Positions 9,519-26,837 are shown, counted from the stretch's first letter. The stretch: DNA of 32,748 nucleotides from a candidate division WOR-3 bacterium (GCA_034722095.1 JAYENM010000344.1:1-32748), one strand, 5' to 3'. Numbers and translations are program-made. Notes: generated from the letters alone by a model not told the origin.

Positions 9519-9656
9519 GTAGTCGCAACTTTTCCGTGCGGATCCTGGGGATAAGTTGCGTAAATTGAATCCAGAACAGCGTCTTCTATTCGCAGACTGA
9601 AGTCTGCGGCTACCAGATCCCTACTTTTTGCACAGCCTGTGAAGCCTACGGCTACC
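9519..9656. repeat. GTAG-type REP doublet (REPIN-like) plus a degenerate third copy; first REP interrupted by a 19-nt insert
   Basis: GTAGTCGCAACTTT[TCCGTGCGGATCCTGGGGA]TAAGTTGCG 9519-9560 faces CGCAGACTGAAGTCTGCGGCTAC 9591-9613. Confidence 0.75.
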
Positions 9657-9760
9657 ACCTTTCGTTTTTTTGCACAACAACTGAAATATGCTCCTGCCTG
9701 ACGGTCACTGCGGATCCGTATGGACAGGCAGGCAAATCCCTGTTAGATTTTATTTTTTGC

Positions 9761-9789
9761 TTGACATTTTGTAAAATTCGTGGTACAAT
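9761..9789 (+). promoter_or_regulatory. Sigma70-type promoter
   Basis: TTGACA 9761-9766, 17-nt spacer, extended TGn + TACAAT 9784-9789. Confidence 0.8.
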
Positions 9790-9795
9790 ATATTT

Positions 9796-9875
9796 GTGGT
9801 GTCAGGAGTTGCCGAACCCGTGGTGTCAGGAGTTGCCTTACGGCGACCTTCGGTATACCCTCCTGACACAAAACA
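9796..9875 (+). ncRNA. Candidate small structured RNA / 5' leader
   Basis: Begins at the predicted TSS; 18-nt direct repeat GTGGTGTCAGGAGTTGCC (9796-9813, 9820-9837); closing arm CTCCTGACAC 9860-9869; inner hairpin GTTGCC-TTAC-GGCGAC. Confidence 0.4.
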
Positions 9876-10093
9876 CTGTTTCTCTTCCATTCTCTTAGCA
9901 TCACTGTTTAAAAAATAAATTAACAGGGATTGCCTGCCTGACGGCAGGCAGGTATGAGAACATAAGAGAAAAAGAGATAAAAAACAAAGAAAAATAATCT
10001 CTTTCCGTCTCTTCAAATCCCTGTTGAAAAAATAACAGGAAGGGAGAAGAGAGCCCTGTAAAAGTCATAACAGTAACTGAAAAAGGAAGGATT

Positions 10094-10567
10094 ATGTCTA
10101 TGAGCAAACGGTATATAGCACTTGGGCTTGTTTTAGTTATGGCTTTACTGTCCCTGAGTTGTGCGCCCGGAAATGAACGCTGGGATCAAGAGATCAATCC
10201 TGAACAAAAGGCAGGGTTCTGGGCAGGAGTATGGCATGGGTTAATTATTGTTATTACCTTTATTGTAAGCCTGTTTACTAAAGAAGTTGGTCTGTATGAA
10301 ATTAACAATACGGGCTGGCCTTACAACTTGGGGTTCATAATCGGGCTGTTCTCATCAGTAGGCGGTGGCATTCGTATCGGGAGAAAGAGGCGAAAACGCA
10401 GAAAATATGATTGGGATGAGATTGGTGATATGATTGAGGAAAGAGTGCATAAGGGAGTTGAAGCCTGGTTAGACGAAACCGAAAAAGAAAAGGAATGGCA
10501 GGAAATAGCCAAAAAGATTGAGGAAAAGATTAAAAAGAACCTGAAAGAATGGGCTGAAAAAGAATAA
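10094..10567 (+). CDS. Membrane lipoprotein of unknown function
   Basis: Lipobox SLSC, AGFWAGVWHG and YNLGF membrane segments, charged C-terminal helix; RBS AAGGA. Confidence 0.8.
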   Translation: MSMSKRYIALGLVLVMALLSLSCAPGNERWDQEINPEQKAGFWAGVWHGLIIVITFIVSLFTKEVGLYEINNTGWPYNLGFIIGLFSSVGGGIRIGRKRRKRRKYDWDEIGDMIEERVHKGVEAWLDETEKEKEWQEIAKKIEEKIKKNLKEWAEKE

Positions 10568-10660
10568 AAAGGTGGTCATTTGAGCATCGCGCCGAGCTTG
10601 AAGCCCTTTTTGACCTCGAAGTAAGGGGAATGCACAAAATATTATACAAGGAGGTGTAAG

Positions 10661-11524
10661 ATGCAACAGTATTATAGAGGGGAAAAACGGGTCACACTCA
10701 TTGTCACAGGATGTGTGATAGGCTTGTTGCTGATTATCTTTCTTTCTCGTGCCATAAAGGTTGTATCACCAGGTTTTGTAGGCATAAGGGTTCTTTTTGG
10801 CAAGGTAGTTGAGCCAACCTTAAAGGAGGGCTTGCACTTTGTTAATCCGCTTGCATCAGTTATCAGAGTGGATACAAGGACACAGGCATATACGATGAGT
10901 GGAATGGTAAGAGAGGGAAGAGTCCGCGGCGATGATGCCATATCTGCTTTGACAAAGGAAGGGTTAAGGGTAAAACTCGACCTCACTATTTGGTACAGGG
11001 TAGATCCAGAGAAGGCAGGTGAGATTTACAGGACAATAGGCATGGGTTACGAAGATAAGATAGTGCGACCTGGTGTGCGTACAGTGATCAGGGATATTAC
11101 CTCTCGATTTACTACTGAGGATATATACGCTGAGAAGAGACCACAGGTTACAGCAGCTATTCAGAGTGTAGCAAAGGAGATGCTTGAAGATAGAGGTATG
11201 ATATGTGAGAAGGTACTCGTAAGGAATGTGGCTTTACCAGAGAAGGTGAGAGATGCAATAGACTTAAAGCTGGCCGCTGAACAGGATGCACTTAAGATGG
11301 AATTTGTGCTTAAGAAGGCTGAGAAGCAAGCGGAGGTTAAGGTAGTAGAGGCAAAAGGTATTGCACAGGCACAGCGGATAATAAATAGAACACTGACGGT
11401 GAAGTATCTTCAACATGAGGCGATAGAAGCTTATAAAGCACTTGCTGGGTCACCGAACACAACATTTATCATCATGCCCACGAGTCCAGAAGGAGCAGGC
11501 ATTCCGCTGATAATTGGTAAATAG
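10661..11524 (+). CDS. SPFH/prohibitin family membrane protein
   Basis: N-terminal TM helix, GFVGIRVLFGKV, EGLHFVNP, LTKEGL, VLVRNVALP, VEAKGIAQAQRII; RBS AGGAGG. Confidence 0.93.
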   Translation: MQQYYRGEKRVTLIVTGCVIGLLLIIFLSRAIKVVSPGFVGIRVLFGKVVEPTLKEGLHFVNPLASVIRVDTRTQAYTMSGMVREGRVRGDDAISALTKEGLRVKLDLTIWYRVDPEKAGEIYRTIGMGYEDKIVRPGVRTVIRDITSRFTTEDIYAEKRPQVTAAIQSVAKEMLEDRGMICEKVLVRNVALPEKVRDAIDLKLAAEQDALKMEFVLKKAEKQAEVKVVEAKGIAQAQRIINRTLTVKYLQHEAIEAYKALAGSPNTTFIIMPTSPEGAGIPLIIGK

Positions 11525-11530
11525 AATAGA

Positions 11531-11675
11531 GTGAAATATTGTGGGTGTCCTGTATGTAATGTTGGTTGGCTGTGAGAAAATGCCGAAAGATATCAAGCAC
11601 CCAATTGCTATCCTCAAAGACGACCGAAAAGTTCTCTTAGAGGATAACGGAACTTGGGAATGTATAGTGAGGGAT
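11531..11675 (+). pseudogene. Remnant of a small lipoprotein gene, frameshifted at its start and cut by the TIR element at 11676
   Basis: Frame reads IVGVLYVMLVGC-EKMPK..DDRKVLLEDNGTWEC (lipobox LVGC); GTG at 11531 is out of frame. Confidence 0.4.
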
Positions 11676-11815
11676 GGGGTCAGGCTCAATTATTTGACTT
11701 TTTCGCAAGACTAAAACACCGTTTTATGATGGGACAGAATCATGGCGAGGAAACCGAGAATCGAATTCCCCGGTGGTCTTTATAGAAACTTATGCAAATA
11801 GTTGAGCCTGACCCC
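11676..11815 (+). mobile_element. 140-bp non-autonomous deletion derivative of a Y1 (IS200/RAYT-like) transposase element, with 21-bp terminal inverted repeats
   Basis: GGGGTCAGGCTCAATTATTTG 11676-11696 versus CAAATAGTTGAGCCTGACCCC 11795-11815 (20/21 match); internal mini-ORF 11742-11801 MARKPRIEFPGGLYRNLCK* resembling the N-terminus of Y1_Tnp proteins. Confidence 0.8.
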
Positions 11816-12057
11816 GAGAGTTTCCCATGGAAAAGAACTCCTTGAGATACTCTATAAAGAGGCCTATCGTACCACACGTCCCCAGCGGGGTGGCGTATAA
11901 CACACATTTACCTGTCGCCTGCCCCGCCTTGGCGGGGGCAGACAGGTTAAAGCGATTTGTAAAGAAAAAATCTCTTCATTAGCGGGTTTTCTTCTGTCAG
12001 GTTGCAAAGCAAAATGGGATTAAAAATTCCAGATTTCAGTCTGACCTCCATCTTTTT

Positions 12058-12398
12058 CAGACTATCAGTATTGAGAATGCCTATATAAGGCAGATCGAAG
12101 AGAACAACAAAAATATAGTCGAGGTGTCGGCGAGAAACTTCTCGCTTATCGACCCAGAAGATGTAGAGGTTTTTGGTCGTTTTATCATTAACTACACACG
12201 CCGTAAAACGAAGTGGGACGAGCAGTATCGCCTGAAAACACCGCCAGGGATATACCGCGAAACGGTGATGTTTCCATCATGGGAGCAGAGTTTATGGAAA
12301 GGGTTAAGGATAAGTTTCTGGCAAAGAGAAAAGAACTGGATGTATTAAACAGAGCTAAGCCCCCCCTGCCTAAGTCGGCTGTGGCGCCGCACCAATAA
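12058..12398 (+). pseudogene. Frameshifted 3' fragment of an unknown gene
   Basis: Two overlapping frames join into one protein-like sequence (..IEENNKNIVEV..IDPEDVEVFGRFII..PPGIYRE / NGDVSIMGAEFMERVKDKFLAKRKEL); no convincing start or RBS. Confidence 0.4.
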
Positions 12399-12504
12399 AT
12401 AGGACAGATTAAAGGCGAATTACCAAAAAAATTCTTTATTAACAGAAGTATACCTCTGCCTGTCTAACTACCGTAGGTAGGTGGTATGTAAAGGGGGATT
12501 AAAT

Positions 12505-13827
12505 ATGAAATGTCTTATCATTGCCGCTGGTAAAGGAAGCAGATTATCAAAAAGAGGCGATTCAAAGCCCCTTATTCCACTTCTGGGATTATCCCTTATC
12601 GAACGGGTGATATTGACTGCAAAGAAGAGTGGTCTTACTGATTTCTATGTAGTAACAGGATACAACGGTGAGAAGGTAAGGCAATATCTTAACAGATTTA
12701 GCCAGAGCAAAAATATAAATATAACCCATATCACAAATGAAGAATGGGAAAAGGGAAACGGCATATCTGTCCTTAAGGCAAAAAAACTATTAAATGAGAA
12801 TTTTATTCTATTGATGGGGGATCATATCTTTGACGAATCGATACTGGTAAAACTAAAGAATGAAAGAATAGCTGATGGCGAAAGTATGCCGGCCGTAGAT
12901 TATAACATTAAAACCAATAAACTTGTTGATGTTAATGGAGTTACCAAAGTTCTTGTCGAAGACAACAGGATTCTCAATATAGGAAAGAATATCAAGAAAT
13001 ATAACGCTTATGATACAGGAATTTTTCTTTGTTCCCCGGCAATATTCAGCGCCATTGAAGAAAGTATACATAATGGCGATAGCTCCCTTTCAGGGGGGAT
13101 AAGGATTCTGGCCAGCAAGGGAAAGGCTAAAACCTTTGATATTAAAGATGGTTACTGGATTGATGTGGATGATGAGAAGACATTTAAAAAAGCGGAAAAA
13201 AAGCTTTTAGATACTTTAAAAAAGACCTCCGATGGTACTATATCAAGATACTTAAACAGACCAATATCAACCAGGATTACAAGGCGCCTTTTAAGAACAA
13301 ATATTACCCCAAATCATATTTCGGTCTTCTCTTTTATCCTTGCTATACTGGGTTCCTTGTTTTTCTTTTTAGGGGGGTATATTAATTTAGTAATCGGAGG
13401 TATACTGGCACAAGTATCATCCGTGATTGATGGTTGTGATGGGGAGATAGCAAGGTTGAAATTCCAGATTACAGAATTTGGTGGATGGTTTGATGCTGTC
13501 TTAGACCGCTATGCTGATGCTTTTCTTCTTCTTGGTTTGACTTATTATGTTTATTTTACAAATACGAATTTTCTTGCCCTCTTCATTGGTTTTCTGGCAA
13601 TCATAGGCACTTTCATGAATAGTTATACAGCCGACAAATATGACGGTTTAATGAAAAGAAAACTTGGACCAGGAAAGTACTATTTTGGAATGGGGCGTGA
13701 TGTTAGAATGTTTATCATATTTCTTGGGGCTGTCCTTAATCAGCCTCTTTTAACCCTTGTTTTAATTGCTCTTTTGACGAATGCAGAAAATATCAGGAGG
13801 ATAGTGGTTCTGTATAAAAATGGATAA
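12505..13827 (+). CDS. Bifunctional inositol-1-phosphate cytidylyltransferase / CDP-alcohol phosphotransferase (IPCT/DIPPS-like)
   Basis: IIAAGKGSRL..KPL, GNGISV, LLMGDH, DTGIF, WIDVDD NTP-transferase domain; ITPN and DGCDGEIAR..GGWFDAVLD CDP-OH motif; ATG 12505 follows RBS AGGGGGA. Confidence 0.88.
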   Translation: MKCLIIAAGKGSRLSKRGDSKPLIPLLGLSLIERVILTAKKSGLTDFYVVTGYNGEKVRQYLNRFSQSKNINITHITNEEWEKGNGISVLKAKKLLNENFILLMGDHIFDESILVKLKNERIADGESMPAVDYNIKTNKLVDVNGVTKVLVEDNRILNIGKNIKKYNAYDTGIFLCSPAIFSAIEESIHNGDSSLSGGIRILASKGKAKTFDIKDGYWIDVDDEKTFKKAEKKLLDTLKKTSDGTISRYLNRPISTRITRRLLRTNITPNHISVFSFILAILGSLFFFLGGYINLVIGGILAQVSSVIDGCDGEIARLKFQITEFGGWFDAVLDRYADAFLLLGLTYYVYFTNTNFLALFIGFLAIIGTFMNSYTADKYDGLMKRKLGPGKYYFGMGRDVRMFIIFLGAVLNQPLLTLVLIALLTNAENIRRIVVLYKNG

Positions 13828-14389
13828 TATTGATTGTGTAAAAAAGAAGATTGAGGAGATTATTAAAAAATCTCCAGTTCCTGAAGACCCAATCCACTCG
13901 AAAAATACTTTGGAGTGGCTGCTTAAATTAAAGCCTGATGCTGATGAGACCTTTAAAATAGCAGCTTTAGGTCATGATATAGAAAGGGCTATTGAGGAAC
14001 GGAAAGTAAGGCGCAAGGATTACAAAAGTTACGATGAGTTTAAAGATGCCCATGCCTTAAACAGTGCTAAGATCCTGGCAGAAATAATGAAGGAGTGTAA
14101 TACAAGTAAAGAATTAGTCGATGATGTCTTTTTTCTGGTGCGCCATCACGAAACAAGAGGCACAAGACGTGCCAATGTTTTAAGAAATGCTGACACCATC
14201 TCATTTTTTCATGTAAACCTGCCCAACTATTTCATCCGAAATGGTATTGAAGAGACGAGAAGGAGATTCTTATGGGGGTACAAGAAGTTATCTGATAACC
14301 TGAAAAGGGTAGTGGCCGAGTTCGATTACCAAGATAAAGAACTTGAGTCCCTGGTGAGGGTTTGGGAAAAACCATCCTTCCTTTTGTGA
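13820..14389 (+). CDS. HD-superfamily protein (DUF4202-like)
   Basis: HSKNT..KIAALGHDIER..HALNSA..HHE..NADTISFF; overlaps upstream gene by 8 nt. Confidence 0.8.
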   Translation: MDNIDCVKKKIEEIIKKSPVPEDPIHSKNTLEWLLKLKPDADETFKIAALGHDIERAIEERKVRRKDYKSYDEFKDAHALNSAKILAEIMKECNTSKELVDDVFFLVRHHETRGTRRANVLRNADTISFFHVNLPNYFIRNGIEETRRRFLWGYKKLSDNLKRVVAEFDYQDKELESLVRVWEKPSFLL

Positions 14390-14577
14390 TAATCTCCCCT
14401 TATAGGTTCCTCCTGCATTCGGCTTTTCGACGTTCGCTCTCTACTCGCTACTGCCTACTATTTCCTTTATCTCTTCGACCTAATGTCTTATATCCAAATT
14501 GGGGGTTCTTCAAATTCTCATATCTGAAGGTCACAGACTCGTATGAGATCCGTATGGATTTGTGTGCATTCGATTGA

Positions 14578-14637
14578 CCTGCCCCGCACCTATGCATACC
14601 CTCGCACCTATTGGGTGCGGGGCATAGGTGCGGGGTG
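14578..14637. repeat. Nested palindrome
   Basis: CCCCGCACCTATGC 14582-14595 / GCATAGGTGCGGGG 14622-14635 enclosing a related CGCACCTATTGGGTGCG hairpin. Confidence 0.8.
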
Positions 14638-14839
14638 AATGTAATTCGTGGTGTCTTTTTTCTTGATCGCGTAGGAAAGCTTCCTATAAGAATGTCAAGT
14701 TATTTTTTCAAAAAGATGTTTGCAAATTGGTAACCCGTTGTATTGCCGATAGTTACAAATATTGCTCTTTGAAAAGTATGTAGTTTACCTATCCTCTGAG
14801 TGTTAACTTCTTGCAACACAGAGAGTTAGAACTGCGATG

Positions 14840-15101
14840 GTGTGGTAACCTCACCAGGGGTCCTGGCTCTTCAGGATAACCTCTCTGGCCCGCGGCCTAA
14901 ACTGGCAGTTATATAAGATATCCAGTCCGTGCGGATCCGTATGGAGCTGTACGAATTCGCACAGGGAAGTCCTGGTTCTTAACTTCCTTCATTCTGGCTT
15001 CGCGGGCGGTGAGGGAATGGAGTCTTTCCTGCGGGATTATCCCTCTTTAACGGGATTCCTAATGTATAAACCCTGAATCCCTCACCACCACAGTTTATGT
15101 T
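14840..15101 (-). ncRNA. Candidate bridge/seek RNA in the 3' non-coding end of the IS110 element
   Basis: GC-richer ORF-free region after the recombinase stop; minus-strand stem GGTGAGGGA..TCCCTCACC with internal loop and inner ATCCC/GGGAT hairpin; two further hairpins sharing AAGA(A/G)CCAGGAC. Confidence 0.55.
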
Positions 15102-16472
15102 TTATGTTAAAGAACTATTGATATACCAATTAGCCGTTTTATACCTTACTTGCAGTTTGCTGTCGTAGTCTCCATCGTATGGAATTTCTTCTGTAAGCAT
15201 CCTGAAGATTATGCGTAGTAATTTACATGCAACAGCGATCAAGGCTTTCTTCTTTTTCTTCTTCTTTTCTGGTTGGTTTGTGATAATTCGAAGATAGAAC
15301 TTCCTGATGGGGCTACCCCTTCGGATTGCACGGACAGCTGCTTGATACATTATGATTCGGAGTAATTTTCTACCGCGCTTTGTGATGTGTTTGAGGGTAT
15401 GGACACTCGTACCAGATTCCTCACTCCAGAGGTCTAAACCGGCGAGTTTTATAAGCTGTCTGCCGCTCGTGAAGTGCTGTATATCACCTATCTCTGCTAT
15501 AATACTTGCTGCCGTGATTGGTCCAACACCGGGTAGGGTGAGAAGAAGTCTGTAGTCTCTTAGATCTTTGACAATTTTATGCACCCTTTCATTGACTTGG
15601 GCGATTCTACTGTAAAGAATCCCCAGGTCTTGCAAGAGCGTACTGATTTCGAATAGCACAGCCTCATCTTCGCCGACGATACCAACGGAGTTCTTTGCCA
15701 TGTCATATATCTCTTCCAGCCTTTTATGACTGAAATGGGGATTCGATTTAGCCACATTCTTCACGAATTGATCTTTTGGAATATGGGTTATCATAGAGGG
15801 GAGAGGGTATTTTTCCAGGATTATGAGCATGGTCTTCGCCTCTATATCGTAGAAGTACTTCTCGAGTTCTGGGAAGACATACCCAACGACATTCCTGAGT
15901 CTATTCCTGAGTGTTGATTTTGCGTTTATGGAGCGGAAGTAGAGTTGCATAAAACGGTGAAGTTGGGCTACCGTTTTATCCCTTTGAACGGGAAAATAGA
16001 ACTTCCCTTGCATTATGAGATCAGCTATATTACGGGTGTCCTTTGGGTCAGATTTATCCTTTGAGACATTCATGGTTTCTCTGTTGCGATTGACAGCAAG
16101 GGGACTCACGGTAACTGTGAACTCTCCTCGTAGAGTGAGAAACTGATAAAGATGTTTCCAGTATTGCCCGGATGGTTCCATACCGAAGATGATGTCCCTG
16201 CAATGGTTTCTATTTTTATAGAATCCTGCTTTATTTAGAAACCATTCAAATCCTTTGGCAGTATTTGGAAAGAAGTACTTTCCTGCAAGGACTTTGCCGT
16301 TAGAGATCATGAAGCAAGCACAGTTTCTGAATTTACCGATATCTACAGCGACTATCAAAATATCTGTAGATGCACGCACTCTATCCTTGAGTGCCTCGAG
16401 GACACTTTTGACACCCTTTAATGGTTCAAAGGTATCCCTCGCTTCCGGTAATGGGTACTGTTTCTTTACCAT
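15102..16472 (-). CDS. IS110-family DEDD recombinase/transposase
   Basis: VAVDIGK, GMEPSGQYW, KSDPKD (DEDD); LLTLPGVGPITAASIIAEIGD, SEESG, ITKRGRKLLR, ALIAVACKL; ATG 16472 lies 5 nt after AGGAGG. Confidence 0.96.
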   Translation of the reverse strand: MVKKQYPLPEARDTFEPLKGVKSVLEALKDRVRASTDILIVAVDIGKFRNCACFMISNGKVLAGKYFFPNTAKGFEWFLNKAGFYKNRNHCRDIIFGMEPSGQYWKHLYQFLTLRGEFTVTVSPLAVNRNRETMNVSKDKSDPKDTRNIADLIMQGKFYFPVQRDKTVAQLHRFMQLYFRSINAKSTLRNRLRNVVGYVFPELEKYFYDIEAKTMLIILEKYPLPSMITHIPKDQFVKNVAKSNPHFSHKRLEEIYDMAKNSVGIVGEDEAVLFEISTLLQDLGILYSRIAQVNERVHKIVKDLRDYRLLLTLPGVGPITAASIIAEIGDIQHFTSGRQLIKLAGLDLWSEESGTSVHTLKHITKRGRKLLRIIMYQAAVRAIRRGSPIRKFYLRIITNQPEKKKKKKKALIAVACKLLRIIFRMLTEEIPYDGDYDSKLQVRYKTANWYINSSLT

Positions 16473-16507
16473 GGCCACCTCCTGTTATTAAGGGTTATTG
16501 TTTTTTT

Positions 16508-16536
16508 ATCTTACAGGAGGTTGGCCATAATGTCAA
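16508..16536 (-). promoter_or_regulatory. Sigma70-type promoter of the IS110 gene
   Basis: Minus strand TTGACA (16536-16531), 17 nt, TAAGAT (16513-16508). Confidence 0.7.
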
Positions 16537-16725
16537 GAAAATTATTTTGAGTTATTATACCAGTATATGCTAAGTCATTGGTATACTTGATATAGGGACA
16601 ATTATTGAAATAAGTTCTTTCATTTTGTAAGGAGAAAGGGAGAAAGTATGAAAAGGGGAATTAACATTTTTATTTCTTTTTCTCCATCTCCTTCTTTCCC
16701 CATTTCTCCTTTTGTATTTTTTTTC

Positions 16726-16754
16726 TTGACAAAGTAAGAATTCGGAAGTATAAT
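16726..16754 (+). promoter_or_regulatory. Consensus sigma70 promoter for the serpin gene
   Basis: TTGACA 16726-16731, 17 nt, TATAAT 16749-16754. Confidence 0.85.
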
Positions 16755-16850
16755 ATTTAGTAGAGAGGATCGTTGTAGATATATCACCCATAGTTAACCT
16801 TGATGTGTCATATATAGAGATTTATATCAGAAGTACTGAGGAGGTGTATT

Positions 16851-18071
16851 ATGTATAAAATATTAAATTTTACCCTTGTGCTCTTACTTTGCATTGGACT
16901 TATGCAATGCGCAGAGACTCCTATCTCACCGATTTCGCGTGAACTTACACTCGCCGAAAAACAATTGGTCAAGTCAGATAACAAATTCGGGTTCAAGCTT
17001 TTCAAGGAGATTATTAAAGAAGAAAAGGATAAGAATGTCTTTATCTCTCCATTGAGTGTTTCCATGGCATTGGGAATGACCTACAACGGCGCTAATGGAA
17101 GTACGCAAGAGGCGATGCAAAAAACCCTTGAACTTTCTGGTTTGACGATTCAAGAAGTCAATGAGTCCTATAAAAGCTTGATAGAGTTATTAACAGGGCT
17201 TGACCCGAAGGTTCAGTTTCAGATTGCAAATTCAATCTGGTACCGTCAGGAGTACTCTTTTGAAGAGGAATTCATCAATCTATGTAAGACATATTTCAAT
17301 GCTTTGGTGCGGGGGTTGGATTTTAACGACCCGAATGCTGCAGATACAATAAATGGATGGGTTGAAGAAAACACCAATGGAAGAATCAAAGAGATCGTTG
17401 ACAAGCCCATTAATCCTTTGACGGTGATGTTTCTCATTAATGCCATATATTTTAAAGGCACCTGGACTTATGAGTTTGATGAAGAACTAACAAAGGATGA
17501 TTGGTTTTACTTGCCTGACGGTTCAAGAAAGCCTTGCAAGATGATGGAGCAGAGAAGTGAATACAATTATTTCTCAAATCCAGATTTTCAGGCCATTGAT
17601 TTACCCTACGGTGATGGTGATTTCAGCATGACGATTTTTCTTCCGCGCCCGCAAAAGAACGTCGATTCCCTGATTGCAGAATTTAACGAGGAGAATTGGG
17701 ACAATTGGATAAACAGTTTCTCAAAGGATTCAGGAGATATCTATATCCCAAAGTTTACACTCGAATATGGAATAAAATTAAACGATGTTTTGAAGGCATT
17801 AGGAATGGGAATAGCTTTCGATCCTTATTGGGCTGACTTTACCAGGATGTATAAACCCGGGGGTATATGGATTGACAAGGTAAAGCACAAAACATTTGTT
17901 AAGGTAAATGAAGAAGGCACTGAGGCAGCGGCAGTTACTTCTGTTGAGATGATACTGGGAGCTGGCTTTGGCTTTTATATGCGAGTGGATCGACCATTTG
18001 TATTTGTGATTCGAGAAAATAAGTCTCAGACGATACTCTTTATGGGGAAAATTGTGGAACCGACCCTATAA
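16851..18071 (+). CDS. Serpin (serine protease inhibitor), probable lipoprotein
   Basis: NVFISPLSVSMALGM, NSIWY, INGWVEENTNGRI, LINAIYFKGTW, hinge NEEGTEAAAVT, VDRPFVFVIRE, ILFMGKI; signal with LMQC; RBS GAGGAGG. Confidence 0.96.
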   Translation: MYKILNFTLVLLLCIGLMQCAETPISPISRELTLAEKQLVKSDNKFGFKLFKEIIKEEKDKNVFISPLSVSMALGMTYNGANGSTQEAMQKTLELSGLTIQEVNESYKSLIELLTGLDPKVQFQIANSIWYRQEYSFEEEFINLCKTYFNALVRGLDFNDPNAADTINGWVEENTNGRIKEIVDKPINPLTVMFLINAIYFKGTWTYEFDEELTKDDWFYLPDGSRKPCKMMEQRSEYNYFSNPDFQAIDLPYGDGDFSMTIFLPRPQKNVDSLIAEFNEENWDNWINSFSKDSGDIYIPKFTLEYGIKLNDVLKALGMGIAFDPYWADFTRMYKPGGIWIDKVKHKTFVKVNEEGTEAAAVTSVEMILGAGFGFYMRVDRPFVFVIRENKSQTILFMGKIVEPTL

Positions 18072-18294
18072 GACCACAGACTACAGACTGCAGACCATAG
18101 ACAGAAAAACAGTAGAAAGTAGGCAGTAAGCAGTATGTACAAAAAGGAAAACTAAGGACCTTTGTTTCCATTGAATTGGAAATCCTTCAATGTCTCTTGC
18201 CTGCCTACGGTAGGCAGGCAAGTCCCGTCCAAATCCCTGTCCATTCCATACGGATCCTGCCCATACGGGTCTTGAGACGGAACGGATCTTGAGA
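18071..18294. repeat. Heptamer runs, CCTGCC palindrome and triple-nested CCATACGG element
   Basis: AGACCACAGACTACAGACTGCAGACCATAGAC; CCTGCCTACGGTAGGCAGG 18200-18218; nested copies 18240-18294. Confidence 0.8.
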
Positions 18295-18381
18295 TTATAG
18301 AACACCTTCGTCTCTGGAAAAATATCCAGAGACCTCTGATTAGAGATTTCTACACTTTTTCAGAAATCTCCCAAAAACTTC

Positions 18382-18410
18382 TTGACATTCTATAAAATAG
18401 ATGGTAAAAT
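18382..18410 (+). promoter_or_regulatory. Sigma70 promoter for the GH57 gene
   Basis: TTGACA 18382-18387, 17 nt, TGn + TAAAAT 18405-18410. Confidence 0.8.
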
Positions 18411-18447
18411 TACAAAAAAGGAACCGGTCCATTTTCGGGGAGGTATA

Positions 18448-20181
18448 ATGTGGTGTAAGAAATTTATCTTGTTTGTTTTCGTGGGAGGAATTATGGGAAG
18501 TAGTTTTGTGAGGGCAGAAGAGATAGAGAAACCTCCTTTGTGTTTAGCAATACTCTGGCATCAGCATCAACCCCTGTATGCCAAAGAACCAGAGAGTGGT
18601 TTATATGCTAAGCCCTGGGTAAGAATGCACGCCGTTAAAGATTATTATGATATGGCAAACATATTGGGAAAATATCCCCAAATTCACCAGACCTTTAATC
18701 TTACGCCTTCTCTGATTATCCAATTGGAAGATATAATTAGCGGTGGGCAAGATAAATATTTTTATCTTTCCCAGAAAAGGGCAAGCGAACTCAGCCGTGA
18801 GGATAAGAAATTTATTCTCTCGAGATTTTTTGATATTTACCAGAAGACTCTGCTTGAACCCTATTCTCGTTATAAAGAACTTTTAGAGAAGAGGGGACGT
18901 GTTATATCTTCAAAGACACTGGAGCAAAAAATAGGTGAGTTTACTACCCAGGACTATCTTGATTTGCAAGTGTGGTTTAATCTCGCCTGGCTGGATCCGG
19001 ATTTAAAAAAAGAAGAGTCAATCCGATTTATACTGGACAAGAGTAGAAACTTCACCGAGGAAGAGAAAAATATCATACTAAAGAAACATCTGGAGATTCT
19101 GAAAATGATTATTCCGGAACATAAGAAGCTTCAAAATAAAGCTCAGATTGAAATAACCTTTACTCCCTTTTATCACCCCATACTTCCCCTCATCTATGAT
19201 ACCGATCTAGGAAAGAGGAGTGCACCGGAAATATCCCTGCCCCGGGAAAGATTTTCTTATCCCGAAGATGCTCAAGCTCAGGTTTTAAAGGGAATAGAAC
19301 TCTATAAGAAATACTTTGGAAGAGAACCACTCGGAATGTGGCCCAGTGAGTCGGCGGTATCCCAGGAGGTAGTCGATATAATCGCTGGCGCGGGAGTTAA
19401 ATGGATAGCCACCGATGAATGCGTTCTTGAGAAATCATTGAATATAAAGATTGAAAGAGATGCCGGAGGGAATATCCTTAATCCAGAATTGTTGTGTCAA
19501 CCCTATGTTTGCGAAAGAAGAGGCAAGACTTTATCGGTAATTTTCCGGGAGAGATCTATACTTGATTTATGGGGGAAGCATCCGCGGATGAAGGCAGAAG
19601 AAGCGGCTCAGGATATTATCGATAGATTACACAATATCTATGCGAGATTACCAAAAGACAAGCCCTATTTAGTGACACTTGCCTCAGATGGTGAAAATGC
19701 CTGGGAATTTTTCTCTGACGATGGAAAAGAATTTTTGAATGCCCTCTATTCTAAATTATCCCGCGACCAGATAATAAAGACCATTACCCCCTCAGAATAT
19801 CTAAAGAAGTATCCTCCGGAGAAAAAGATTGAGAATCTCTGGGGTGGCTCCTGGATGGGACCGAACTTTAATATCTGGATTGGTGAAGGGGAAGAGAATC
19901 TCGCCTGGGAATATTTGGGTAAAACCAGAAAGGACCTTGAAGTATATAAAAAGGGTGGAGAAGCTGAACCCGATAAACTGGTTCAAGCTTTTGAAGAGAT
20001 CTATGCAGCTGAAGGAAGTGACTGGTTCTGGTGGTATGGAGAAGATATGAATTCTGGCGATGACGAAGGATTTGATTTGATGTTTAGAAACACACTGAAA
20101 AACGTTTATAAAATTATCGGCAAGAAAATACCGGGATTTTTAGAAGTTCCGATAGTAAAATCGAGAGAAGAACAGGGCTGA
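18448..20181 (+). CDS. Secreted glycoside hydrolase family 57 (amylopullulanase-like)
   Basis: Signal peptide from ATG 18448 (RBS GGAGG); WHQHQP, PWVRMHAVKDY, HPILPL, GMWPSE (nucleophile), DGENAWE (acid/base), AEGSDWFWWYG. Confidence 0.93.
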   Translation: MWCKKFILFVFVGGIMGSSFVRAEEIEKPPLCLAILWHQHQPLYAKEPESGLYAKPWVRMHAVKDYYDMANILGKYPQIHQTFNLTPSLIIQLEDIISGGQDKYFYLSQKRASELSREDKKFILSRFFDIYQKTLLEPYSRYKELLEKRGRVISSKTLEQKIGEFTTQDYLDLQVWFNLAWLDPDLKKEESIRFILDKSRNFTEEEKNIILKKHLEILKMIIPEHKKLQNKAQIEITFTPFYHPILPLIYDTDLGKRSAPEISLPRERFSYPEDAQAQVLKGIELYKKYFGREPLGMWPSESAVSQEVVDIIAGAGVKWIATDECVLEKSLNIKIERDAGGNILNPELLCQPYVCERRGKTLSVIFRERSILDLWGKHPRMKAEEAAQDIIDRLHNIYARLPKDKPYLVTLASDGENAWEFFSDDGKEFLNALYSKLSRDQIIKTITPSEYLKKYPPEKKIENLWGGSWMGPNFNIWIGEGEENLAWEYLGKTRKDLEVYKKGGEAEPDKLVQAFEEIYAAEGSDWFWWYGEDMNSGDDEGFDLMFRNTLKNVYKIIGKKIPGFLEVPIVKSREEQG

Positions 20182-20362
20182 AGGCCAAAGTGATTTGCCT
20201 GGAGTATCGGGAGCTTTTGGCTCCAGAAGCCAACAAATTCGTAGATTCAATTTTTAAAGACAGTGAAACCGTAAAGAGTAAGATAAAAAGATAAATTATA
20301 AACACGCAGATCAATTATAATGGAACATTAGGTAGTGTCAAATAGAATATGAAAAACCACAG

Positions 20363-20832
20363 TCATACGACCCGTCCCTGTGGATCCGTATGGATATGAG
20401 AGGTCATTCACCCCGTTAGATGTTTACTATCTAACGGGGCAGGGAGTAAATTTAATTCCCCCGCCAGAGGCGGGGCAGGTCTGTGCTCTCCAAAAATGTC
20501 CGTTAGCTAACGGATATAATTTTACAAGGATTTTAAGAGGCGGTAGGGACAGGGCTTGTCCCTGTCCGAAAACACTATTCCTGTCTAACGGACAACCACT
20601 CACAGAGCCGTATGGCAAGGGTTGTCCCTACAAATTCTTTTTCAATCTCTGTTTTAACTAATAAATTTCAATGTACAAAGGTTAAAAGATGGGATAAAAA
20701 GGTTGGTCTTATCCGTGCGGATCCGTATGGATAAGAGGTCATTCACCCCGCCAGAGGCGGGGCAGGGAGGGGATGGGTAAAAATCTTCTGCGAGGCTTTA
20801 TTACTCTATAATCCTCTGTGCTCTCTGTGGTT
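20363..20832. repeat. Repeat-dense spacer: two GGATCC palindromes, three CCCCG..CGGGGCAGG palindromes, TCCGTTAGCTAACGGA, and a GTAG REP doublet
   Basis: 20375-20394, 20712-20731; 20411-20445, 20458-20479, 20746-20768; REPs GTAGGGACAGGGCTTGTCCCTGTCCG 20543-20568 and CGGACAACC..AAGGGTTGTCCCTAC 20589-20631. Confidence 0.85.
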
Positions 20833-20872
20833 CGATTTTTGACAATACTGAGATATGAAAAGGGAGATAAAA

Positions 20873-21343
20873 ATGAAAACATTAATAATTTACAAATCAG
20901 TACACCATGGCAATACTGAAAAAATTGCCAAAGTAATGGCCGAGATCCTTAACGCAGAATTGGTAAAACCAAGCGAAGTAGATATAGCTACCCTTTCAAA
21001 ATATGACTTAATTGGTTTTGGCTCGGGAATTTATCATGGCAAACATCATAAAAGTCTGTTTGAGGTTATTAACAAATTAAACAATCAAAAAGGCAAGAAG
21101 GCATTTATTTTTTCGACTAGTGGGATAAAAAAGGTGCGTTTTTTCCACGAGTTTGACAAGCCATTGAAGAGAAAATTATTGGAAAAGGGTTTTCGTACAA
21201 TCGGAGAGTTTAATTGTAGGGGTTGGGATACATATCCTTTCTGGGTAAAACTCTTTGGTGGAGTAAATAAAGGCAGACCTAACGAAGAAGACCTGGAGAA
21301 TGCAAGAAGTTTTGCGAAATATTTGAAAAGGATGTCTGGATAG
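20873..21343 (+). CDS. Flavodoxin family protein
   Basis: YKSVHHGNTEKIA, DLIGFGSGIY, FIFSTSG, GRPNEEDL; ATG 20873 follows GGGAG. Confidence 0.9.
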   Translation: MKTLIIYKSVHHGNTEKIAKVMAEILNAELVKPSEVDIATLSKYDLIGFGSGIYHGKHHKSLFEVINKLNNQKGKKAFIFSTSGIKKVRFFHEFDKPLKRKLLEKGFRTIGEFNCRGWDTYPFWVKLFGGVNKGRPNEEDLENARSFAKYLKRMSG

Positions 21344-21359
21344 AACTAAAGGAGGAGAT

Positions 21360-22325
21360 ATGGAAATCAAGGAAATAAGGTTAGAGGAATTATTGCCTGA
21401 AAAGTTTATAGAAGAGAAGGTGAAAGAGATTTCTTCTACTGTCGGCAATGGTTTGGCTATCAACGCTCTATCTGGTGGCGTTGATTCTTCTACTGTGACC
21501 ATGTTAGGTCACAGGGCCTTAGGTGATAGACTCAAAACACATTTCGTTAGCAACGGTTTAATGAGAGAAAAAGAACCAGAATACATCGTATCCCTGTTTC
21601 AAAATTGGGGGGTAAAGGTTGAACTTGTCAATGCAGAAGAAACTTTCTTTGACGCATTAAAAGGTGTCACTGATCCGGAGGAGAAACGAGAGGCTATAAC
21701 TCAGGCATTTTACAAGGATGTCTTTGGCAAACTGGTAAAAGAAAGCGGTGCAAAGTATCTTTTGCAGGGGACAAATTACACGGATGTTGAAGAAACTGTT
21801 GCAGGAATTAAAAGACAACATAATATTCTCGAGCAACTTGGAATCAACCCGGAAAAGGTATATGGATATAAGGTCATAGAACCATTAATCCAACTCAGAA
21901 AATCAGCAATAAGAAAAGTTGCGAAGGCATTGGGGCTTCCAGAAGAGATATATAATAGACCGCCTTTCCCGGGTCCTGCCCTGGCAGCAAGAATAATAGG
22001 AGAAGTTACACCCGAGAGAGTAGCGATTGTTAGAAAAGCTACGAGAATTGTTGAAGATGAATTACACAGTACAGGTGCATTTCAATATCTGGCAATTCTG
22101 CATCAGGACAAAGTTACAGGGCTGAGAGAAGGCAAGAGAGATTATGGCATGCAAATAGAAATAAGATGTTGGGATAGCAAAGATGCGGTTACTGGTTCAC
22201 CAACAAGACTGTCTTACGACATCTTGGATAGATTGGCGGAGAGAATAACTAAAGAAGTGGCAGGTGTTGTGAGTGTTACTTATAATATAACCCCCAAACC
22301 TCCTTCAACTATGGAAGCGGTTTAA
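21360..22325 (+). CDS. guaA: GMP synthase ATP-pyrophosphatase subunit (stand-alone, no GATase domain)
   Basis: PP-loop LSGGVDSS, TDPEEKR, LLQGT..D, IKRQHN, EPL, PFPGPALAAR, ITPKPPSTME; RBS AAGGAGG. Confidence 0.9.
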   Translation: MEIKEIRLEELLPEKFIEEKVKEISSTVGNGLAINALSGGVDSSTVTMLGHRALGDRLKTHFVSNGLMREKEPEYIVSLFQNWGVKVELVNAEETFFDALKGVTDPEEKREAITQAFYKDVFGKLVKESGAKYLLQGTNYTDVEETVAGIKRQHNILEQLGINPEKVYGYKVIEPLIQLRKSAIRKVAKALGLPEEIYNRPPFPGPALAARIIGEVTPERVAIVRKATRIVEDELHSTGAFQYLAILHQDKVTGLREGKRDYGMQIEIRCWDSKDAVTGSPTRLSYDILDRLAERITKEVAGVVSVTYNITPKPPSTMEAV

Positions 22326-22342
22326 TGAAGGTCACCACCAAA

Positions 22343-22392
22343 GTGGGAGTTTCCAAACCCCGATTATTGTCGAGACTGGAAGTCTCTCCCAC
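22343..22392. repeat. GTGG-type REP-like doublet between convergent genes
   Basis: GTGGGAGTTTCCA..CGA / TCGAGACTGGAAGTCTCTCCCAC; related half-site at ~23550-23573. Confidence 0.55.
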
Positions 22393-22503
22393 ATTCGGTA
22401 GGCAGTTATCCGCAATCAGTTATTAGTGTCATACGCCGTCCAGAGAGAAAAATTTTTGTGATTTTCGTGCCCTTCGTGGGCTAAGGAATTAAGGTAAAAT
22501 TGT

Positions 22504-23337
22504 TTACTGCCCCAAAGATCTGGCGAGTTCTCTTGCTCTGTAGGAACTTCTTACAAGCGGGCCGGATGCCGCTCCTCTGAATCCAAGTTCCTTTGCGATT
22601 ATTTTAATATCGTCAAATTCCTCAAGGGGAAGGTACCTATTTACCTTTACCTTCCCTCCGGGTGGTCTTATGTATTGACCTACTGTAACAATATCAACTC
22701 CCACATCTCGCAGGTCCTTCATAAGCCCTATTACCTCATCCATTCCCTCGCCAAGTCCAACCATAAAGCCCGATTTTGTTCTTGTGCCCATTTGCTTTGC
22801 CCATTCAAGCAGCTTAAGGGATCTTTTATAATTCGCCATAGGCCGAACAGTGGAATAGAGGCGGAAAACGGTCTCTATATTATGATTTAGCACATATGGC
22901 CCCTCGTCTATCACCGTTTTCAGGGCATCTCTGCTGCCTCTAAAGTCTGGAACGAGCGCCTCAACATCTGCAATATCTCTTAATGTGCTTATAGTTGAAG
23001 CAAACTGAGTTGCACCTCCGTCTGAAAGGTCATCTCGTGAGGGTGAGGTTATCACCACATAGCGAAGCCCGAGTTTTTTAACGATTTCTCTTGCCCTTTC
23101 TGGCTCCTTTTCATCAGGTGGAAATGGTTTCCCCTTTTTTACAGCACAGAACTTGCAGTTTCGGGTGCAAATACACCCGAGTATGAGGAGTGTGGCTGTC
23201 CTTCTCCCGAAGCATTCACCGATGTTGGGGCATCTCGCCTCTTCACATATTGTATGAAGCCCGAGATTCCTCAGGAGTGCTCTCATCTCATTATCCTGGG
23301 GAGAATAAGTGGTTTTTATCCATGAGGGAACTTTCAT
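22504..23337 (-). CDS. lipA: Lipoyl synthase
   Basis: CEEARCPNIGEC, CTRNCKFC, NHNIETV, TKSGFMVGLGE, GPLVRSSY. Confidence 0.97.
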   Translation of the reverse strand: MKVPSWIKTTYSPQDNEMRALLRNLGLHTICEEARCPNIGECFGRRTATLLILGCICTRNCKFCAVKKGKPFPPDEKEPERAREIVKKLGLRYVVITSPSRDDLSDGGATQFASTISTLRDIADVEALVPDFRGSRDALKTVIDEGPYVLNHNIETVFRLYSTVRPMANYKRSLKLLEWAKQMGTRTKSGFMVGLGEGMDEVIGLMKDLRDVGVDIVTVGQYIRPPGGKVKVNRYLPLEEFDDIKIIAKELGFRGAASGPLVRSSYRARELARSLGQ

Positions 23338-23339
23338 AA

Positions 23340-23609
23340 TTTAGTCATTAGGTTATTAGTCATTGGTCGTTTGTATCGTTGGGGATGCTTCGCTGTCAGA
23401 AAAGCCATCTTATGAGTATGTGGCTTTCCCTGAGCATCGTGAACCACCTTCTCTTCGTAGCTCAACACATCGAAGTCTAAGAAGCACGTCGGCAATTCAC
23501 CACAAAGGGCACAAAGAAGGACACCGAGAGATTTAAGATTTTGGTGTTATCGCGACTAAGAAGGCGCTCCCACAATAACCCAATAACCTAATGACTCAAT
23601 ATCCAATGC
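23340..23609. repeat. Spacer with inverted 8-mer runs enclosing degenerate palindromes and a CACAAAG repeat
   Basis: TTAGTCATTAGGTTATTAGTCATTGG ~23341 versus CAATAACCCAATAACCTAATGACT ~23573; CACCACAAAGGGCACAAAG ~23498. Confidence 0.7.
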
Positions 23610-24320
23610 CTAACCTATTGCAAGTCCTAAGGCAGTTGAGAGATAATTACTCTTTTGCACTGCATCAGGATTGAGTGGATAAATCCGTCTTAAAGGACGC
23701 ATGACTTCAACGGATATTCCTGTTTGTTCTTCAAGTCCGAGAACCCTCTCAACCTTCCCTGTCACCATAATCCCCTTGATATTCTTGAAATATGCAACTC
23801 TCTTCTTGAGTTCATCCTGCACAGAGACTTTAACTGGTATATATGCACCATAGTACCCATCATAGGCGAGGTTGAGGACATTTTCTTTTATATCACAGAG
23901 AAGGTATCGTTCTCTTCCAGGATAAGAGAATTGAAATATCTTATGAAGGGCGTTAAGGTCAATATCCACAAAATCGGGGCTCCTTCCAATCTTTTGAAGC
24001 AGAGAGAGTGTATTTACAACATCCTCGTTGTTCTGTACAGTTGCTATAACATCCACCATTTCTTGAGAATATGCCATTTTGTGAAATCTTGCTATGTCTG
24101 TGTCTGAAAGCTCTATGTAATACTTCAATTCTTCATTTAAGAGGTCTTTGGGGGCAGTAAATCTCGCTATTCTTCCCTTTGTACAGGTTATAACCCTTCC
24201 TTCGCCTATTCTGTCTTTTAATTTCTCAAATTCAGTTGTCACAAAAAAATCCTTCAGGATATATCCCTGAAGGCAGACAAGAACGATAGGTGGTCCAGGG
24301 TCTATTGCATAAGTAAGCAT
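23610..24320 (-). CDS. Divergent, shortened PilM-like (actin-fold) protein
   Basis: N-terminal AIDPG, VDIDLNAL, IMVTG, C-terminal LSTALGLAIG resemble PilM/FtsA motifs; only 236 aa. Confidence 0.55.
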   Translation of the reverse strand: MLTYAIDPGPPIVLVCLQGYILKDFFVTTEFEKLKDRIGEGRVITCTKGRIARFTAPKDLLNEELKYYIELSDTDIARFHKMAYSQEMVDVIATVQNNEDVVNTLSLLQKIGRSPDFVDIDLNALHKIFQFSYPGRERYLLCDIKENVLNLAYDGYYGAYIPVKVSVQDELKKRVAYFKNIKGIMVTGKVERVLGLEEQTGISVEVMRPLRRIYPLNPDAVQKSNYLSTALGLAIG

Positions 24321-24512
24321 AAGACAGAACTTCTATCTGCAATCCCTTTTAAAAATAGGGAGCAACAACGAAATAGATATATACAAATCTACCTGTCCAT
24401 ACGGATCCGTAGAGATCAACAGACAGGAACGGCTCGTCTGAGCTCGCCGAAGACGGTCATCTTGAGGACTGCTGATGACTCAGATTTTTGTCTCTTTCCG
24501 TTAGCTAACGGA

Positions 24513-26570: not shown

Positions 26571-26615
26571 AAGAGCCCCCGGGTTGAAATTTTTAACTCA
26601 GTTACTTTTTATTTG

Positions 26616-26828
26616 CCACGGATTACACGGATTTTTTACCACGGAATAACACGGAATTATTATTTAAATTATCTCTTTCTCTGTGTTAATCTGTGCAATC
26701 TGTGGCTTTTTTAGACGCTGATTTACGCTGATTAACACGGATTTATTTTTAAATGTTTTTATTTCAAAGAATTAGTTTCTTTATTTATCTATGAACATCT
26801 GCGTGCATCTGCGTCCCATACGGTCCCT
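26616..26828. repeat. Two inverted pairs of 8/9-nt-period CACGGA/ACGCTGAT repeats
   Basis: CCACGGATTACACGGATT 26616-26633; AGACGCTGATTTACGCTGATTA 26713-26734 is identical to 4801-4822; CATCTGCGTGCATCTGCGTC ~26796. Confidence 0.8.
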
Positions 26829-26837
26829 TTAACAGAG

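Follow-up and report, generated by a model that had tools for sequence, protein, structure and literature searches.

What is the smallest piece of DNA that can move as a unit, and what would move it? A 32,748-nt stretch of DNA from a candidate division WOR-3 bacterium (hereafter, the window) raises this question, as an initial annotation made from the sequence alone described in it a palindromic element of 20 nt that inserts cleanly inside other repeats. The window is the entire 32.7 kb contig C344 of a metagenome-assembled genome (MAG; here G000, 2.0 Mb in 358 contigs, 40.6% GC, 88% complete), and the NrdD protein that it encodes is 99% identical to NrdD of two Candidatus Stahlbacteria (WOR-3) MAGs. 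We are highly confident that the element is a discrete mobile insert with a preference for sites of the form YANG (Y, C or T; N, any base). We also lean towards regarding the 20-mer as one member of a superfamily of non-coding mobile DNA units of 17-20 nt.

The element is present where it was first reported, with copies at or within 1 nt of those positions and in both orientations. The 20-mer at up to 3 mismatches has 5 matches in the window compared to none in 100 shuffles, and the 12-mer GATCCGTATGGA at up to 2 mismatches has 15, compared to 2.0 on average and at most 7 in shuffled sequence; a chance origin of the window copies is excluded. Across the genome, GATCCGTATGGA occurs 144 times, CCGTATGGA 221 times (10.8 expected) and TCCGTATGGA 171 times (3.2 expected). 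By crude open reading frame (ORF) calls, 195 of the 221 copies are intergenic, in agreement with the placement seen in the window. Contig ends adjoin 58 of these 195 copies, and we attribute the poor assembly of these MAGs to the units.

Excision and comparison with relatives both indicate that the units are inserts. For 64 of the 221 copies, removal in silico left a junction of 11 + 11 nt that the genome also contains at another place. The removed segments fall mainly into two size classes, 18-20 nt (24 events) and 36-38 nt (40 events), and the longer class reflects nesting of one unit inside another; in one example, TCACAGACTCG is parted from TATGAG by TCCACAGGATCCGTATGGA, and the 37-nt class includes a three-level case. 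We then aligned some 44 kb, drawn from the window and from contigs C28 and C37, to two relatives, G002 and G003, that are 92-98% (about 95%) identical to the source genome in genes. The alignment contains 13 clean small-unit indels, 11 filled in the source genome only and 2 in a relative only. The 11 comprise nine single units of 17-20 nt, one nest of 36 nt and one of 55 nt. Thus, alleles without the insert exist in two related genomes, including at the window copy 24396-24415. The 55-nt nest, at C37:15651, is the composite also found at 18240-18294 in the window; it is absent as a whole from G002 and G003 (flank identity 0.94-0.98), and a unit with 37 nt of inner units was gained or lost as one piece. 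Since nests of 36-55 nt behave in this way, the outer ends suffice. As the initial annotation had remarked, no target-site duplication accompanies the insert: the boundary ambiguity is 0-2 nt in paralogous and orthologous pairs of empty and filled sites alike.

Units are found in coding sequence as well. A copy of an rve-family transposase gene (C37:7100-8440) holds four inserts of 19, 18, 17 and 18 nt within 1.2 kb, all absent from the G003 and G002 copies. The host sequence is non-palindromic, and the inserts of 17 and 19 nt break the reading frame. The rve genes compared in the three genomes may be paralogous insertion sequence (IS) copies. The units are precise indels with fixed ends. The claim of a very small, discrete, non-coding mobile unit that nests in other repeats is supported, and the units nest in their own copies too. 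The variety of flanks is a third sign of insertion. The 150 usable copies reduce to 47 distinct flank contexts; many ride as passengers in larger composite repeats (context sizes 25, 17, 17 and 12). Several host sites hold first modules that are unrelated to one another. At one of them, ctgtctaccga^caggtaga, the first part of the unit is TGCACAGCA, TCACTGCGGA or TCCCTACGGA.

Each unit consists of two adjacent mini-hairpins of 8-10 nt, a variable module of 7-10 nt followed by a constant module. The first has the form T-stem-loop-stem-A (for example TCC-ACA-GGA, TGC-ACA-GCA, TCT-CA-AGA or TCCC-TA-CGGA) and the second the form xxC-GTAT-Gx'x', mostly TCCGTATGGA. A sequence logo and a census of first modules confirm the early observation that one arm is constant and the other variable: TCCGTATGGA is invariant in the logo, the 5' part varies, and conservation resumes 3' of the unit with A at +2 and G at +4. 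A T..A mini-palindrome of 7-10 nt lies directly 5' of TCCGTATGGA in 153 of 171 copies, most often TCTCAAGA (43 copies), followed by TCCCTACGGA (26), TCCACAGGA (16), TGCACAGCA (14), TCCTTACGGA (12), TCCGAAGGA (7) and TCCGTGCGGA (4). The palindromic 20-mer first described is a special case, in which the first module nearly repeats the second in inverted orientation. The 17- to 19-mers have stems of 3 bp, and only the 20-mers fold as a single imperfect stem of 8-10 bp.

In the constant module the loop is kept and the stem co-varies. Among 902 occurrences of NNCGTATGNN, 342 have complementary outer dinucleotides compared to 56 expected, and three composition controls gave 28-58 of 340-778. Five stems account for this pattern: TC/GA (171), GT/AC (61), GC/GC (37), CT/AG (34) and CC/GG (24). 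An unbiased scan for short non-tandem segments that part two 11-mers adjoining elsewhere in the genome recovered relatives built alike. Its 15-22 nt class consists mostly of this superfamily, with TGCACAGCA+TTCTTCGAA, TCACAGA+GCCGTATGGC (the window copy at 20600), TCACAGA+CTCG[T/C]ATGAG, TCATACGA+CCCGTATGGG and CCCTACGG+CTCGTATGAG as further combinations; the class also holds 20-nt repetitive extragenic palindromes (REPs) of the CCTGCCTACCGGCAGGCAGG type.

The initial annotation had proposed that the units target hairpin or cruciform DNA. The flanks do not bear this out: the junction lies in a loop (stem of at least 4 bp) in 9 of 47 contexts compared to 267 of 1500 random intergenic positions (Fisher p=0.85), and the fold energy of the joined flanks does not differ from that of random intergenic positions (p=0.31). 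Under the refuting condition that the initial annotation had set, this part of its interpretation fails. What adjoins the constant end is ^YANG. YA occupies +1/+2 in 32 of 47 contexts against a background of 13.7% (p=2e-17), and under a looser clustering into 61 contexts Y is at +1 in 48, A at +2 in 43 and G at +4 in 43. Empty orthologous sites keep the tetranucleotide (GTTGA^CAGG, TATTA^TAGG, AACTA^CAGG), and it is therefore target, not element. The same rule explains two features of the family. The units nest in one another because the constant module contains CG^TATG, which matches it, and their apparent liking for REPs arises because REP 3' arms begin with CAGG or TAAG. Other subfamilies, read TTCGAAGAA first, also adjoin CAGG, TAAG or TCAG, and the trend recurs in G050, a genome of a different family, where YA follows 7 of 13 copies among the matches listed.

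The individual copies in the window illustrate these properties. The 19-nt unit TCCGTGCGGA+TCCTGGGGA at 9533-9551 (+ strand) lies inside a GTAG-type REP (9519-9560) with TAAG on its right. Its excision restores a REP that is uninterrupted at four other places (up to 3 mismatches), and the filled composite REP is also multi-copy. At 9705-9724 (+), the 20-nt unit TCACTGCGGA+TCCGTATGGA splits the REP CCTGCCTGACGG^CAGGCAGG and is followed by CAGG; excision of exactly 20 nt, with no boundary ambiguity, gives an 11 + 11 nt junction found four times elsewhere. The uninterrupted form of this host, a 20-nt REP at 9933-9952, is of a type that flanks a gene for a REP-associated tyrosine transposase (RAYT) on contig C54. 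Comparison with G003 revealed that this REP is a clean 20-nt indel itself (window position 9932), absent in G003:C217 at a flank identity of 1.00. Between these two features, a tandem or hairpin repeat at 9795-9870 (+) contains the sequence GTGTCAGG^AGTT, an unfilled target for another 17-nt relative, TCACAGA+CTCGCATGAG. Filled paralogs of this site type are known, with 22, 13 and 3 empties, and a contig of run X3 has TCACAGACTTGCATGA at this junction, although this contig may be a paralog rather than an allele.

Two copies further along required reinterpretation or stand alone. For the copy annotated at 14539-14558, only the constant module TCCGTATGGA (14549-14558, +) holds up as described; the 5' part belongs to a separate 17-nt relative, TCACAGA+CTCGTATGAG (14531-14547, +), that ends one base (A, 14548) before it. 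The 20-nt unit TCCGTGCGGA+TCCGTATGGA at 14926-14945 (+) has GCTG, not YANG, on its right and is a singleton context for which we found no empty site.

Nesting is most elaborate at 18240-18294 (- strand; right flank CAGG), a 55-nt composite of three levels (18+19+18 nt). Innermost is the 18-nt TCTCAAGA+CCCGTATGGG, within the first module of the 19-nt TCCG^CAGGA+TCCGTATGGA, which in turn lies within the second module of the outer 18-nt TCTCAAGA+TCCGT^ATGGA. A 38-nt nest at 20363-20400 (+) has the 20-nt TCCCTGTGGA+TCCGTATGGA (20375-20394) in the 18-nt TCATACGA+CCCG^TATGAG; excision of all 38 nt has one empty paralog, and the context family numbers 17 copies. Two copies had been called degenerate, at 20599-20615 and about 26815. 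The former is a proper 17-nt member, TCACAGA+GCCGTATGGC, whose true position is 20600-20616 (+), off by 1; it sits in the loop of the GTAG-type REP CGGACAACCAC^AAGGGTTGTCCCTAC, empty paralogs of which exist, so that excision restores the REP. The latter is a lone CCGTATGG-like core that is not shown to be an insert. At 20712-20731 (+), the 20-nt unit TCCGTGCGGA+TCCGTATGGA occupies GGTCTTA^TAAGAGGTCA and is followed by TAAG. The restored palindrome proposed for this site has no empty paralog at up to 2 mismatches, but the host site does recur on C54 and C104, where it holds the 18-nt member TCTCAAGA+TCCGTATGGA instead.

The copy at 24396-24415 (- strand; 20-nt TCTCTACGGA+TCCGTATGGA, right flank CAGG) was likewise predicted to leave an intact host on removal, and the orthologous site is indeed empty in two relatives, with a clean 20-nt gap in L001/G003 and L002 and a boundary ambiguity of 2 nt (GA). 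Contigs of runs X3, X6 and X8 span 24255-26572 with 37-69 gap letters; these are compatible with empty sites and are not used as evidence here.

Close to this copy is a second kind of small unit. The 16-nt perfect palindrome TCCGTTAGCTAACGGA at 24497-24512, with another copy at 20499-20514, corresponds to a clean 18-nt indel (window position 24495) absent in both relatives at a flank identity of 0.96-1.00. More generally, 16-nt perfect or near-perfect palindromes (TCCGTTAGCTAACGGA, TCCGTCAGCCGACGGA) form a second class that appears as clean 18-nt indels between these 95%-identical relatives. In one case an 18-nt palindrome adds 6 codons in frame to a gene of the PolyA_pol/HD (CCA-adding enzyme) family in G003, the ortholog of C28:8327-9658 in the source genome (site C28:8903). 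A 307-nt repeat block between two genes at C28:5260-5566, which includes a nested 36-nt unit, is missing as a whole from both relatives, and only 2 nt separate the two genes there. Arrays of tandem repeats of about 7-10 nt (cagacta-, cacggatt-, ctgtg- and gcagatg-type) occur at 18070-18100 and 26600-26810 in the window; such arrays fill intergenic regions and differ between close relatives. Around 18060-18400 and 26560-26860, orthology is too remodelled between relatives to call.

We next considered how the family is distributed. The 12-mer was counted in 272 genomes of the phylum. It is abundant in only three: G001, of the same genus (190 copies), the source genome (144) and G050 (138), which belongs to a different family and is the sole abundant carrier marked "same phylum" only. 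Lower counts were obtained for G003 (18), G020 (15), G005 (10), G002 (9), G014 (8), G021 (8), G270 (5) and G006 (4), and about 250-260 others have 0-1, as does a reversed-pattern control. In G050, G020, G014, G270, G005 and G021, identical 19- to 20-mers lie in unrelated flanks, often before YA; these carriers of identical sequence extend to further families of the phylum, and one of the genomes lies outside the class. Copies in the source genome are about ten times as many as in the relatives with 95% identity. Most polymorphic sites are filled in the source genome and empty in both relatives, a pattern that suggests a recent burst in its lineage. The 138 copies in G050 suggest horizontal transfer or long retention of the system. 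Two 14-mers matched 97 and at least 118 viral contigs, with a single match in each among the matches listed; by our estimate this is the chance level, and no phage vector is evident.

The units cannot encode anything. We propose that they would be mobilized in trans, as single-stranded DNA, by an HUH/Y1 nuclease-ligase similar to those of IS200/IS605 elements or to RAYTs, which would recognize the small hairpins and then cut and join beside a tetranucleotide. Such a scheme would explain why no duplication is seen, why a tetranucleotide is preferred and why the stems co-vary. These features, together with the tolerance of cargo, fit the single-strand cut-and-join chemistry that passages of PMC6006769 describe for IS200/IS605 transposases and RAYTs. 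Y1/HUH is the best remaining enzyme candidate, by an inferred link, and that an enzyme of this kind moves the units is a tentative assignment to which we give a little less than even weight. In its favor, Y1_Tnp (PF01797) was found in 10 of 10 carrier genomes tested, with 5 hits in G000, 15 in G001 and 14 in G050. The source genome has 4 intact Y1 genes (on C249, C38, C54 and C184) and 2 truncated ones, and runs at least five RAYT/REP systems. Long Y1 forms with a DnaA-like tail occur in G001 and G050, and G002 (C128) has an intact relative of the truncated copy on C80.

Several observations weigh against this proposal. In 39 Y1 loci (gene +/- 1.5 kb) from 21 genomes, the motif immediately flanks the gene, in the manner of a REPtron, in none, though a gene could have been missed because the MAGs are incomplete; 4 of the 39 loci hold a motif copy anywhere within 1.5 kb. 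Each of the intact RAYTs in the source genome has a distinct flanking REP of its own. When 34 Y1 proteins were clustered (33 taken from the loci and the truncated one on C80), no ortholog group specific to carriers emerged, and Y1 genes are also present in 15 of 22 relatives with 0-1 motif copies. Eight ORFs have motif copies on both sides; the sole relevant one is the truncated RAYT on C80, and its flanks are GTAG-type REPs of the 20600 type that carry the 17-mer in the loop as a passenger. The units leave no space for the guide and linker geometry of an IS608 end, the 3-bp stems of the 17- to 19-mers fall far below the 7-20 bp stems of described REPs, and the predicted fold energies are weak (-0.7 to -3.8 kcal/mol, DNA parameters). 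The TGCACAGCA+TCCGTATGGA subfamily has a conserved left flank, CCGT^, rather than YANG. Finally, orientation relative to flanking genes is even (56 same, 53 opposite), with no clear strand bias; an association with gene strand on the contig is weak (p=0.019, from copies that are not independent). GC skew tracks gene strand (rho 0.92) in this fragmented MAG and so does not report the direction of replication.

One RAYT system of the source genome deserves mention in its own right. The C249 RAYT unit (REPs CCCACCGC..GCGGTGGG) is multi-copy, occurring on C249, C226, C240, C233, C208, C121 and C354, and in several copies of this type the same internal stretch of about 285 nt is missing from the gene, as in non-autonomous derivatives. 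The usual description of a REPtron is of a single copy that does not move.

A more specific and rather improbable version of single-strand movement is that the units are the minimal natural substrate of a DNA transposition activity, either Y1/HUH acting on non-cognate mini-hairpins or a new enzyme, kept or exchanged across WOR-3 classes. The two ends, of about 13 nt and 5 nt, would then alone define mobility and tolerate cargo, and the variable first module would help to set the insertion site by conferring specificity or acting as a guide.

Among the explanations that compete with trans-mobilized mini-hairpins, the one that survives best is that the units are ordinary REPs or REPINs of a standard REPtron, whose cognate RAYT falls in a region missing from these fragmented assemblies. 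The units fit the REP class in size, number of copies, palindromy and placement between genes, at least five RAYT/REP systems operate in the source genome, and that genome is 88% complete with 58 of 195 intergenic copies by contig ends. REPs inside other palindromes are reported in a passage of PMC3733652. We nevertheless judge this explanation unlikely. The 39 loci without a motif-flanked gene include those of G050 (97% complete, 14 hits) and G001 (91%, 15 hits), most members have 3-bp stems, and the GT[AG]G or CGTC tag is missing from the hairpin foot, GTAT or GTAG being located in the loop instead.

It is less probable again that no dedicated element exists and that template switching, slippage and recombination among dense repeats shuffle short palindromic patches. 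Intergenic regions are extremely repeat-rich and remodelled between 95%-identical relatives, 36 nt were deleted at C249 by recombination between two copies, and some junctions have 0-2 nt of microhomology. However, most junctions lack microhomology, the ends are constant across 47 contexts, and identical 19- to 20-mers recur between unrelated flanks, also in genomes of other families and in one that does not belong to the class. Also against shuffling are the inserts in non-repeated coding sequence of the rve transposase gene and the specific YANG preference, and patches with variable end points were not seen in the unbiased indel scan.

Movement through an RNA intermediate, by transcription and reverse transcription, is a route reportedly proposed for the small dispersed repeats (SDRs) of cyanobacteria, which the units resemble in being very small and nested and in sharing a secondary structure with compensatory changes. 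In RNA, the G·T pair of CGTATG would become a G·U wobble, and the source genome has one RVT_1 gene. We consider this route very unlikely, because high-copy genomes are without a reverse transcriptase: no RVT_1 match was found in G001 (190 copies, 91% complete) or G050 (138 copies, 97% complete). Moreover, there is no orientation bias relative to transcription, and a search of the window against Rfam matched no family. RVT_1 as the mover was rejected on its occurrence in G000 only among G000, G001, G003, G004 and G050, and the Y2/IS91 transposase (Y2_Tnp) was rejected on the same pattern among five genomes. The target of Y2 enzymes is CTTG, which resembles the complement of CAAG. One IS91-type Y2 transposase gene and one reverse transcriptase gene are located at C95:10028-10588 and C312:848-1498, in the source genome only among the genomes tested.

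There is scant reason to view the units as a selected protein-binding or uptake-signal-like site rather than mobile DNA. A core of 10-12 nt is strongly conserved across distant lineages and the junction often forms GGATCC/GATC, but a binding site does not account for clean indels of 17-20 nt, self-nesting, interrupted genes or a tenfold difference in copy number between 95%-identical genomes. In addition, copies in divergent, convergent and tandem intergenic regions number 19, 9 and 109 (23, 9 and 105 expected), and the lack of bias in intergenic class or gene direction argues against an operator, a terminator or a role at the level of the transcript.

The IS110-family recombinase of the window (15102-16478), another enzyme that the initial annotation had suggested, is almost certainly not what inserts the units: IS110 elements do target repeats and one unit (14926-14945) sits 157 nt past the 3' end of this ORF, but the gene is single-copy in G000, none was found in the unit-carrying genomes G050 (138 motif copies) or G020, and the mechanism does not yield 20-nt inserts. 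The gene itself (- strand; DEDD_Tnp_IS110 and Transposase_20 domains) is the sole copy in the MAG, and no counterpart of 11667-16800 was found in G002 or G003 except for the N-terminus of a serpin.

If units of 17-20 nt do indeed move, transposable DNA can be smaller than was known and the mobilizing enzyme needs little, two 3-bp hairpins and an adjoining tetranucleotide; the units would rank among the smallest mobile DNA known. If they are in fact the minimal substrate of a transposition activity, they would be smaller than any other known mobile DNA that is defined by its ends, and would offer a natural template for programmable insertion tags of very short length. The units explain why genomes with 95% identity in their genes differ wholesale in intergenic regions. 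Their recursive insertion enlarges composite repeats, other mobile elements are inactivated by them (four in one rve transposase copy), and related small palindromes add in-frame peptides to proteins. Of interest to us are the very small size, the bipartite build from mini-hairpins, the recursive nesting that a simple target rule explains, and a sequence conserved across a phylum. Identical sequence in different families is unlike described REPs and provides a handle for finding the enzyme by phylogenetic profiling.

How do the units compare with known systems? The initial annotation did not recognize a described element. For the exact family this remains so, as we found in the literature searched, at the level of abstracts, no description of it or of Stahlbacteria repeats, though the supplementary REP catalogues of PMC3733652 and PMC6006769 might list relatives; for the kind of element it does not, since REPs and cyanobacterial SDRs are precedents.

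Miniature inverted-repeat transposable elements, which derive from DDE transposons, are bounded by terminal inverted repeats of 15-30 bp and duplicate their target site, whereas the units lack a duplication and are shorter than one such terminal repeat. Like Rickettsia palindromic elements and intragenic REPs, a palindromic unit can lie in frame in a protein gene (as passages of PMC3733652 describe), but Rickettsia palindromic elements are much longer, and the units are mostly intergenic, those of 17 and 19 nt in the rve gene being frame-breaking.

Hairpin recognition, guide and target tetranucleotides and the absence of a duplication characterize IS200/IS605 elements and REP biology, according to parts of PMC6006769. 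Like the IS200/IS605 family and its non-autonomous derivatives, which move by single-strand peel-and-paste, the units insert without duplication beside a preferred tetranucleotide that is left in the empty site, have hairpin-defined ends and tolerate cargo between them, the 55-nt composite moving whole. They differ in being far shorter than any described end pair. IS200/IS605 elements have subterminal hairpins of about 20-25 nt at both ends, each with a guide tetranucleotide 5' of its foot, whereas the unit in total is 17-20 nt, without room for guide or linker; its preferred tetranucleotide directly abuts the hairpin, and no clear strand bias is seen relative to flanking genes.

The resemblance to REPs and their RAYTs is broader. 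REPs measure 20-40 bp in the portions of PMC3733652 that define them, or 21-65 nt in those of PMC6006769, and are high-copy and mostly extragenic. The units are likewise short, palindromic, mostly intergenic and present in hundreds of copies (144-221), at or just below this size bound. Several families coexist per genome as singletons, dimers and clusters; target duplication is absent, bursts are genome-specific and Y1 genes are present. REPs can also sit in other palindromes and in genes (passages of PMC3733652; PMC6006769). Unlike REPs, however, the units are 17-20 nt, are made of a pair of 3-bp mini-hairpins where a REP has a single stem of 7-20 bp, carry no GT[AG]G or CGTC tag within 0-2 nt on the 5' side of the hairpin foot, immediately flank no RAYT gene in 39 loci and nest in themselves systematically. 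Their sequence is conserved across families of the phylum, whereas REPs are described as species-specific.

Judged by how they are described, the SDRs of Nostocaceae are the closest known phenomenon. Families SDR1-8, the subject of Elhai et al. 2008 (Genome Res 18:1484), are said to be very small mobile repeats of 21-27 nt that nest in their own copies by an unknown mechanism and insert into other short repeats and heptamer arrays. The families reportedly differ in sequence and share a secondary structure with compensatory changes. The units correspond to this picture in nesting up to three levels and in placing five complementary stems around CGTATG. They differ in their host, WOR-3 rather than cyanobacteria, in their size of 17-20 nt compared to the reported 21-27 nt, apparently in sequence, and in showing a YANG target preference. 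In the portion of PMC5861425 that treats them, SDR5 inserts in HIP1 and no SDR is recorded outside Nostocaceae among HIP1-rich cyanobacteria. Collectively, we slightly favor the interpretation that the WOR-3 units are trans-mobilized single-strand hairpin elements akin to REPs and to the SDRs of cyanobacteria.

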